This document shows positions 11,825 to 13,411 of a stretch of DNA of 64,000 nt, one piece after another (within the stretch, counting starts at the first letter, position 1; each line of letters starts with the position of its first letter). Under the pieces are notes generated by a model that was not told where the DNA came from, ran no database searches, and saw only the letters and a program-made list of their open reading frames with translations. Position numbers and translations under genes: made by a program. Source of the DNA: Escherichia phage PhiR41_1. The stretch lies in the sequence record PV340561, one strand, 5' to 3'.

Positions 11825-12634
11825 ATGAGTTCGGTTGAAAATGTAATGACAAATGATGATCTGGATGAGCTGACAGCCATGTTGCAATCACTTGATGAAC
11901 CAGTAAAAAAAGCTGCACAGGTTGAAAATACTGATGATATTGACGATCTGCTTCTCGGCCTCGATGCTGGCGTAGCCATGAGTTCTGATGATGTTGCCGA
12001 AGAACTGTTCAATGAAGAAAAAGCAGGTGATTTCAGCTCTGCTTTAAATGAGTTGGAGTTAGCGCATGAGCCTATAAACGTAATTAACGCTGAAAGTGTT
12101 GAAGCTGCCGAAAACGAGCCAGAACAATTGGGATTTATTGAGGTTGAAGAGTGTGTTGAGGTTAATGATGAATTAAAAGTTCAACAGTCAAATGATAGCA
12201 ATACAAATAAAAAAGCTCGTGTTGCAAGAGGTCCTCGTTTTACTTTAAGTGATAAAGATGATTCGTTTTTCAATAAAGCAGGCTTAGAAAAAGATATTTT
12301 CTTAGACGCTTACGAAAACGCGCCTGTCAAAGCGAAGGATAAGATATTAAATCTTCTTAATTGGTTTAGCGGAGGTCCAGATATTAGTGTTTACACGGTA
12401 ATTTCCATGAGACACCTTCTCACAGAAAAGAAGGCTACAAGTAATAGTATTAAGATTGCTTTAATGAGCAATCCAGAAAAACCGTATCCGCTTAACACTG
12501 CGTCAACTCAGGCTGGGCAAATGATGGCTGTATTTCCAGCTACAGGAATTGCTGTTAGAGACGGTGGAAATCTAACATTGAACGAAGAATCACCGATCGT
12601 TAAGAAGTTTGTCGCGGAGTACACTATTGGATGA
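11825..12634 (+). CDS. hypothetical protein with strongly acidic N-terminal half
   Basis: 269 aa; first about 130 residues very D/E-rich; GAAGGAG RBS; sits upstream of the Dam-like methyltransferase. Confidence 0.55.
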   Translation: MSSVENVMTNDDLDELTAMLQSLDEPVKKAAQVENTDDIDDLLLGLDAGVAMSSDDVAEELFNEEKAGDFSSALNELELAHEPINVINAESVEAAENEPEQLGFIEVEECVEVNDELKVQQSNDSNTNKKARVARGPRFTLSDKDDSFFNKAGLEKDIFLDAYENAPVKAKDKILNLLNWFSGGPDISVYTVISMRHLLTEKKATSNSIKIALMSNPEKPYPLNTASTQAGQMMAVFPATGIAVRDGGNLTLNEESPIVKKFVAEYTIG

Positions 12635-12714
12635 CGTTCCCCTACTGAAAATAAAGCCCATAGAGAGCTTTATAGTGCTGGGTAAGCATAACCCATACCC
12701 AGCACCACAAAAAC

Positions 12715-12756
12715 GCGCCAGAGAGCTTCTTGTTCGCATTTCTGGCGCGTTTTATT
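12715..12756 (+). terminator. rho-independent terminator
   Basis: GCGCCAGA...TCTGGCGC hairpin followed by GTTTTATTT; preceded by a second hairpin (GTGCTGGGTA...TACCCAGCAC). Confidence 0.6.
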
Positions 12757-12786
12757 TGATTGCCATACATGAAATCAAATGCAAAA

Positions 12787-12806
12787 ATAGGTAATCACTT
12801 ACCTAT
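12787..12806. promoter_or_regulatory. motif B palindrome (ATAGGTAATCACTTACCTAT, perfect)
   Basis: Perfect 8+8 palindrome 11 nt upstream of the Dam start. Confidence 0.45.
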
Positions 12807-12817
12807 CGAGAAAAAAG

Positions 12818-13411
12818 ATGATTGCAGCCGAAAAAATCAAACAGCGAAAGCGCGACAACTCTCTTCGTGATCTCTGGAGAACACCTGATTGGCTGTTTTC
12901 TGCCATTCAACGTTATCTTGGAGTGACATTTGATGTTGACGTTGCCTGCAACAAGGACAATGCAAAGCTGCCTATTTTCATAGGCGTTGAGCGCGATGCT
13001 TTGAAATCTGAATGGGGGCAGCCAGGTACAATTGCCTTCCTCAATCCACCCTACTCCAAAATCTCCCCCTGGATTGATGCGGCTATACGTGAGCAGGCTC
13101 GCGGAGTTACAACAGTGATGCTAATTCCTCAATCCCTCGATACAAAGTGGTATGAGCGTGCAACAGAGTATGCGAATGAGACGATTATTCTGTCTGGTGG
13201 CCGCGTAGCGTTTGTCGAGCCTGACGTCAATTTGGGTCAGGTAGAAGTAAACATCAACCCCGGTGGCAGTATGCTCGTTGTTTTTCGAGGATTCTGTCAG
13301 GACGCTGGGCACTCTATAAGCAAGATCCCTTTGGACGTCATGAAAAGTCTGGGAGGGTATGATCCTGCGAATGTGGTCAGAAAAAAAAGAGCATCAAAGA
13401 AGGCTGCTTAG
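12818..13411 (+). CDS. dam: DNA N6-adenine methyltransferase (phage Dam family)
   Basis: 197 aa; WRTPDWLF N-terminal motif and NPPYS catalytic motif followed by conserved W. Confidence 0.85.
   Translation: MIAAEKIKQRKRDNSLRDLWRTPDWLFSAIQRYLGVTFDVDVACNKDNAKLPIFIGVERDALKSEWGQPGTIAFLNPPYSKISPWIDAAIREQARGVTTVMLIPQSLDTKWYERATEYANETIILSGGRVAFVEPDVNLGQVEVNINPGGSMLVVFRGFCQDAGHSISKIPLDVMKSLGGYDPANVVRKKRASKKAA

Follow-up and report, generated by a model that had tools for sequence, protein, structure and literature searches.

The stretch of DNA examined here, 64,000 nt of Escherichia phage PhiR41_1 (sequence record PV340561; hereafter the window), is assigned by its relatives to an SSU5-type phage-plasmid, a kind of element that is common in clinical Enterobacteriaceae and whose establishment in new hosts is poorly understood. 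We focused on three rightward genes: one for an acidic protein (11825..12634, + strand, 269 aa), one for a Dam-family methyltransferase (12818..13411, +, 197 aa) and one for a second adenine methyltransferase (18288..19973, +, 561 aa). A sequence-only reading of the window by a model had combined them into a layered anti-restriction strategy. Open reading frame (ORF) calls recovered all three at the positions given in that reading, and its gene identities proved right. With moderate confidence, we interpret the set as a winged-helix regulator or adaptor with an acidic tail plus two orphan methylases, not as one anti-restriction module. The three would be separately transcribed early genes of the phage-plasmid. 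These results leave current understanding standing and overturn nothing.

The acidic gene was delimited by its ORF and translation, matches phrog_5235 (E = 2.4e-149) and is preceded by an AGGAG ribosome-binding site, located 7 nt 5′ of the ATG and invariant in relatives. Charge divides its product in two. Residues 1–128 (11825..12208, +; bounded by composition, alignment and structure-prediction confidence) contain 35 Asp/Glu versus 4 Lys/Arg, corresponding to 27% Asp/Glu and a net charge of −31, values for which the earlier wording ‘extremely D/E-rich’ was fair, if slightly strong. Residues 129–269 are basic (net +4, isoelectric point (pI) 9.3). Among the 81 proteins predicted in the window, its most acidic 100-residue stretch (net −27, 30% Asp/Glu) ranks first. 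An alignment of 25 relatives resolved three zones, comprising a moderately conserved N terminus, a variable acidic linker and a strongly conserved C terminus of ~135 residues. Two amphipathic acidic motifs stand out on the + strand: DDLDELTAMLQSLD (aa 11–24, nt 11855–11896), conserved in this alignment, and IDDLLLGLD (aa 39–47, nt 11939–11965), with the family form IDDLLxGLD. L20, L23 and L43 are invariant and L16 and L42 nearly so. The linker is highly variable and indel-rich, with a pairwise identity of 22% versus 67% for the C-terminal domain. In the acidic region of 138 diverged representatives, net charge is −22 at the median, with an Asp/Glu content of 27% (126 of 138 at −10 or lower); the C-terminal domain is neutral to basic. 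Because the charge is kept in these representatives though the sequence is poorly conserved, the N-terminal acidity exceeds chance and is real and selected. The N-terminal motif may also resemble CheY-binding peptides (DDLLDSLGF-like; CheZ/FliM), a likeness to which we gave no weight.

In an AlphaFold2 (AF2) model built with 25 sequences, the predicted local distance difference test (pLDDT) score was 29–64 over most of the N-terminal half and <50 at aa 84–131, with predicted helices at aa 10–80 (pLDDT 52–77). The acidic half is, therefore, largely predicted to behave as an intrinsically disordered region, unlike a rigid DNA-shaped fold. For the basic C-terminal domain (12227..12631, +; aa 135–269), pLDDT exceeded 90, and the predicted structure together with fold comparison indicated a winged helix, with a three-helix bundle containing a helix-turn-helix followed by a β-hairpin wing. 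Among 48 diverged members, K169, K173, N176, S188, T225, Q229 and Q232 are invariant. These residues map to the helix that precedes the motif and to the beginning of the putative recognition helix (TASTQAGQMM, aa 225–234, nt 12497–12526, +), an arrangement typical of DNA contacts. On the basis of the pI of 9.3 and the invariance of K169, K173, T225, Q229 and Q232, we infer that the modeled domain binds DNA. A structural or scaffold protein, which the sequence-only reading had named as its contrary outcome, did not emerge; the product instead has the look of a DNA-binding protein. Invariance of the recognition helix further suggests a conserved ligand rather than phage-specific operators. A profile search of PDB sequences returned low-complexity noise only, and a BFVD fold search with the acidic protein yielded nothing informative.

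Signals in the noncoding DNA argue for separate expression of the acidic gene and dam. Terminator-like hairpins with U-tracts, scored as RNA fold energies against shuffled sequences, were detected at the end of the exonuclease gene (11669..11703, +; −21.3 kcal/mol, z = −4.65; inverted repeat I2), in the interval between the acidic gene and dam (12710..12753, +; −25.5 kcal/mol, z = −5.46; perfect 13-nt arms, I7) and after dam (13435..13487, +; −24.1 kcal/mol, z = −7.33). The acidic gene additionally has an upstream element of its own, CTGCCTGTATTTAATACTTTTCCGCCTGATAGGTTTAGTCAAAAT (11736..11781, +), a nearly invariant 46-bp sequence that forms a block of invariant columns within diverged intergenic DNA when seven elements are compared. 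It contains a direct repeat, CTGCCTG / CCGCCTG, spaced 21 bp, and an extended −10-like TGATAGGTT. The element is single-copy in the window, and a similar core is present in moderately distant relatives and absent from the most distant ones; these features are consistent with a promoter- or operator-like function. A bipartite GCCTG repeat was weakly enriched (4 copies versus 0.41, the other copies being intragenic) and serves only as a lead. Because terminator hairpins lie on both sides and the upstream element is private and conserved, the acidic gene and dam look like separate transcription units, which weakens the argument drawn from their adjacency. Their pairing appears to be a matter of synteny and not of an operon, since the hairpins part the genes and distant members lack an adjacent Dam gene. 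No origin-like repeats were found downstream of dam, and Rfam returned no matches over 11–20.5 kb.

To place the acidic protein in a wider context, we ran a full hidden Markov model (HMM) search of 1.84 billion representatives, which retrieved 666 proteins at E ≤ 1e-3, of which 255 also passed E ≤ 1e-10. Members are mostly 220–330 aa long, align over nearly the whole profile and have the same layout. None carries a name, including distant ones in Aeromonas and Vibrio (~110-kb contigs). A word-indexed search found SSU5-like relatives only, on contigs of ~100–120 kb and all labeled hypothetical. The analysis thus defines a large, unnamed and conserved family, represented by 666 clusters, that joins a winged helix to an acidic tail predicted to be disordered. 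In 85 SSU5-type loci, the order ThyA–PNK–DHFR–AAA_28–hypothetical protein–exonuclease–acidic protein–Dam is kept, with Dam next after the acidic gene at every locus (83 full-length, 2 partial), a median gap of 188 bp and insertions of >400 bp in 13. The preceding gene (11107–11664, 185 aa) encodes a DnaQ-like exonuclease consisting of the exonuclease domain alone, and the acidic gene consistently follows it in this lineage. The acidic protein diverges faster than its neighbors, with ~55% identity where Dam and the exonuclease retain ~84%. In the distant elements L009, L100, L102 and L097, the acidic gene lies in ThyA/dUTPase/AAA_28/RNase_T clusters with no adjacent Dam. Because distant members keep these clusters without Dam, the conserved association is with an early DNA-metabolism module and not with methylation, and the acidic gene emerges as one of the early core genes in this phage lineage.

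This fixed place in a nucleotide-metabolism and exonuclease block across a wide phage lineage suggests that the protein acts in early DNA metabolism, in replication or in early-to-middle transcription, either as a regulator or as an adaptor. In the mechanism we propose, the basic winged-helix domain would contact DNA through its Gln/Thr/Ser-rich recognition helix. The acidic tail, long and largely disordered with two short amphipathic helices, may recruit a partner or drive self-association. It could also bend back onto the basic domain and compete with DNA intramolecularly, thereby tuning binding. Several points weigh against this assignment, which draws only on the modeled fold and on gene position. 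An invariant helix is a poor fit for phage-specific operators where intergenic DNA is unrelated between phages, and the winged-helix domain may instead contact some protein or a generic feature of DNA. No binding site was identified for it, and the sole strongly over-represented intergenic motif is absent around distant family members. AF2 with 25 sequences could miss a fold in aa 10–80, and low pLDDT serves as no more than a proxy for disorder. Finally, neither methylase could be given a methylation motif.

The nearest known kind comprises winged-helix DNA-binding proteins (ArsR/SmtB, MarR, PadR, Fur, TubR and the linker-histone globular domain). Unlike these, the acidic protein belongs to no Pfam or NCBIfam family and features three extra helices ahead of the winged helix as well as an acidic, disordered N-terminal extension of ~130 residues. 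T4 MotA-type activators combine a partner-binding N-domain, a linker and a DNA-binding C-domain. T4 MotA resembles the acidic protein in its two-module layout and as an early gene of the lytic program, but no homology was shown, its domain is a ‘double wing’ rather than a winged helix, and no box motif was found here.

The gene after the acidic one was correctly described as a Dam-like N6-adenine methyltransferase. Its phage-type product exceeded the curated cutoffs of both PF05869 (E = 1.5e-37; 129.3 versus 28.1 bits) and TIGR01712 (112.5 versus 97.05 bits) and carries the catalytic (D/N)PPY motif as NPPY (aa 76–79, nt 13043–13054). Homologs were detected in 1,984 phage records, and identity to the Stx-phage Dam is 39%. 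By analogy with PF05869-type Dam, a family specific for GATC, the enzyme is probably GATC-specific; GATC is neither depleted nor avoided in the window (290 sites, observed/expected 0.90). In HMM score, size and the NPPY motif, it is like the small phage Dams of T1, HP1 and Stx phages, from which nothing notable sets it apart, and it can be regarded as an ordinary small phage enzyme. Hia5-type nonspecific methylases, which are alpha-class enzymes with DPPY and belong to another family, were considered and found irrelevant to PF05869.

For the second enzyme, the sequence-only reading held with respect to methyltransferase identity; its N-terminal 400 residues, described there as an unassigned domain, are in part covered by DUF4942 (PF13708; aa 140–295, nt 18705–19172; E = 1.7e-20, 74 bits versus a gathering score of 25), a Pfam family of no known function. 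The gamma-type catalytic core (~aa 395–561, nt 19470–19970, +) has motifs X, I and IV, in that order, within a Rossmann core, with FYPTP at aa 401–405, motif I LEPQAGRG at aa 425–432 (nt 19560–19583, +) and motif IV NPPY at aa 489–492 (nt 19752–19763, +). With Pfam N6_Mtase (PF02384), the isolated core scored 18.2 bits, under the gathering score of 20.4. No target-recognition domain was found C-terminal to the core, as the protein ends right after it and all extra sequence is N-terminal; therefore, the DUF4942-containing 400 residues presumably supply DNA recognition. In lacking that C-terminal domain, the enzyme differs from the gamma-class M.TaqI, M.BseCI and CamA, and none of the top solved structures offers an equivalent of its N-terminal region. 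It also differs from P1 DarB, a very large, virion-packaged methylase plus helicase, being 561 aa long with no helicase domain.

Large conjugative plasmids commonly encode full-length homologs with ~30% identity; in IncHI2 plasmids, one example, the gene lies near repHI2 and a Dam gene, and the IncHI2 homologs share the DUF4942-plus-core architecture. The catalytic domain is 31% identical (E = 3e-14) to YdcA (187 aa) of the IncF leading region, which lacks the DUF4942 region and is located among ssb, psiB and ardB-type genes. It also shares 30–36% identity with modules in large phage proteins, some of them annotated as DarB-like (30–33%). We regard the 561-aa protein as an orphan N6-adenine methyltransferase with an uncharacterized architecture shared with IncHI2 conjugative plasmids. 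The plasmid and DarB-like contexts make an anti-restriction role plausible by analogy, and the two orphan methylases of the window may contribute to restriction evasion. We found no paper describing the function of DUF4942 or the methylome of pHCM2/SSU5-type elements.

Two proposed relationships of this enzyme were rejected. M.EcoGIX, grouped with M.BceJIII among the single-strand-specific plasmid methylases and an orphan leading-region enzyme of a mobile element, protects against restriction on entry (PMC7736820, PMC4288162). Its IncF homolog belongs to the beta-class family PF01555, unlike either window methylase, and gave no significant BLASTP match to them. A ydbA–ydcA fusion was likewise discarded, since YdbA is a DUF3560 protein without similarity and YdcA alone matches the catalytic core. 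In an IncF leading region (L103, 4506–6477), YdcA, a second small methylase consisting of the catalytic core only, lies directly 3′ of YdbA; the M.EcoGIX homolog, a different protein, is encoded a few kilobases upstream.

Among relatives with enough flanking sequence (n = 68), 41 carry an intact DUF4942 methylase gene, 16 a partial one and 11 none; the gene is accessory and dispensable in many of them. Several close relatives have a gene that ends after codon 158. In L016 (14465–16745, equivalent to window ~18288–18760), an insertion at this codon carries an inverted type I HsdR with EcoR124_C and T1R_D3 domains. Apparently, phrog_16000 corresponds to the N-terminal stump of the gene, whose locus is a cargo hotspot.

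An alternative that we hold possible, though rather doubtful, is that both methyltransferases serve the physiology of the element itself, for example, replication or packaging timing, mismatch-repair avoidance or gene regulation, and not primarily anti-restriction. Dam methylation acts in P1 packaging, and the SSU5-type Dam behaves as a core gene because it comes next after the acidic gene at every one of the 85 loci. GATC is abundant and not avoided and, because enterobacterial hosts already carry Dam, its protection would add little. The DUF4942 methylase fits this explanation less well, as it is accessory, lies in a cargo hotspot and has relatives in restriction-evasion contexts, namely, those in conjugative plasmids, the YdcA-like core and the DarB-like domains.

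Two further explanations concern the acidic protein itself. It could act as a DNA-anchored decoy, with the winged helix tethering it to the DNA of the element and the flexible polyanionic tail competing locally with DNA for host DNA-binding proteins, so that nucleases, H-NS-like silencers or defense sensors would be fended off in cis. The bipartite design of a basic binder plus polyanionic tail, kept across the 138 representatives, would suit such a role, as would the quickly diverging tail and an invariant recognition helix that suggests a generic DNA ligand instead of operators. However, an autoinhibited regulator would show the same features, and the gene resides in a housekeeping-like DNA-metabolism block outside the variable cargo region. 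We know of no family that works in this manner and consider the decoy improbable; if true, the acidic-tail winged-helix family would constitute a new kind of anti-defense or host-takeover factor.

The other explanation takes up the central inference of the sequence-only reading. In it, the acidic half would mimic DNA and block restriction enzymes of type I (or others), forming with Dam and the DUF4942 methylase a layered anti-restriction system. High negative charge in an early phage or plasmid protein is indeed shared with T7 Ocr, ArdA and ArdB/KlcA: the 27–30% Asp/Glu and net −31 in 128 aa fall within the range of Ocr and ArdA, and the acidity is kept family-wide. The fast divergence relative to Dam and the exonuclease would also fit, as would a nearby variable region that in relatives holds anti-defense or defense cargo (Tad2-like in L007, type I restriction–modification in L016). 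Homology searches nevertheless remained negative. Pfam, whose models cover Ocr, ArdA and ArdB, gave no match to the window protein at E ≤ 0.01 and none to ten diverged relatives at E ≤ 1; NCBIfam and PADLOC models did not match the protein, and hhalign gave a probability of 0.08% for T7 Ocr and of 0.15% for a plasmid ArdB/KlcA. Classical DNA mimics are rigid folds. Structure prediction, proposed in the earlier reading as a check, yielded a flexible acidic half but no mimic fold, the folded part being the basic winged helix; instead of a rigid scaffold with carboxylates in a B-DNA-like array, the charged part is largely disordered or of low confidence, with the variable, indel-rich linker described above. 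The best-conserved part is a DNA-binding fold that would be superfluous in a pure mimic, the hairpins argue against cotranscription with Dam, and distant members lack an adjacent Dam. Acidity by itself, thus, misidentified this protein, and an Ocr- or ArdA-like mimic is unlikely.

Over the 9-kb stretch around the three genes, identity amounts to 98.7% with Escherichia phage CMS-2020a and 96.2% with phage Cyrano; Salmonella phage SSU5 and Klebsiella phage-plasmids are related at 78–83%. In the Cyrano and SSU5 annotations, the acidic gene encodes a hypothetical protein (CYRAN_78 / SSU5_087), dam an adenine or DNA methyltransferase and the 561-aa gene a DUF4942 protein or DNA methyltransferase. 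All three belong to a long rightward DNA-metabolism block with RepA, SbcCD, RuvC, RNR, MazG, ThyA, PNK, DHFR and an AAA_28 ATPase, followed by a 139-aa protein of unknown function, the DnaQ-like exonuclease, the acidic protein, Dam, RNase H, TciA/TerB and others, and ending with the DUF4942 methylase and then Ea-type genes. In some relatives, Tad2-like or toxin–antitoxin genes are located between dam and the DUF4942 methylase locus. One relative has a Tad2-like (anti-Thoeris family) gene near the acidic gene–dam pair (L007, 12429–12746), and another has the toxin–antitoxin pairs HigB/HTH, TacA/acetyltransferase, MazEF and VapBC around it (L003, 7246–7850 and 13412–15483). Such genes mark the flanks of the pair as variable cargo.

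Further repeats were noted in noncoding DNA. Between a small ORF and the RNase H gene, a noncoding stretch of ~590 bp without Rfam match (13840–14320) contains TCATAAAGTGA three times, with its orientation alternating, and additional short inverted repeats. A dispersed operator-like motif, AGAAAACAA[C/G]TTGT, with the palindrome ACAAnTTGT, has 22 matches in the window (≤2 mismatches) versus 1.64 expected, mostly intergenic. Sites include 15896, 16625, 21173(−), 26256(−), 30179(−), 30225, 32452, 32936, 33846(−), 34606, 40715(−), 45673 and 45698, among others, and their scatter resembles that of P1 C1-type operators. The motif is kept in SSU5-group loci but is probably not the target of the winged helix, since it is absent near distant members of the acidic family. 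Another sequence, GTGGCCTTAA, has five copies, all intergenic (21163–21172, 26231–26255 and 34441–34468), a count that is not significant by itself (5 versus 3.1 expected with one mismatch allowed). Two of its sites are inverted pairs, and two adjoin copies of the operator-like motif.

Two observations concern the window more generally. The thymidylate synthase (7981–9084, 367 aa) aligns with Pfam Thymidylat_synt (ThyA type) as two separate segments, implying an insertion of ~100 residues, and the label ‘ThyX’ in Cyrano is an apparent misnomer, given the ThyA-type match. CTAG is strongly depleted across the window (29 observed versus 86 expected, ratio 0.34), as is typical of enterobacterial DNA.

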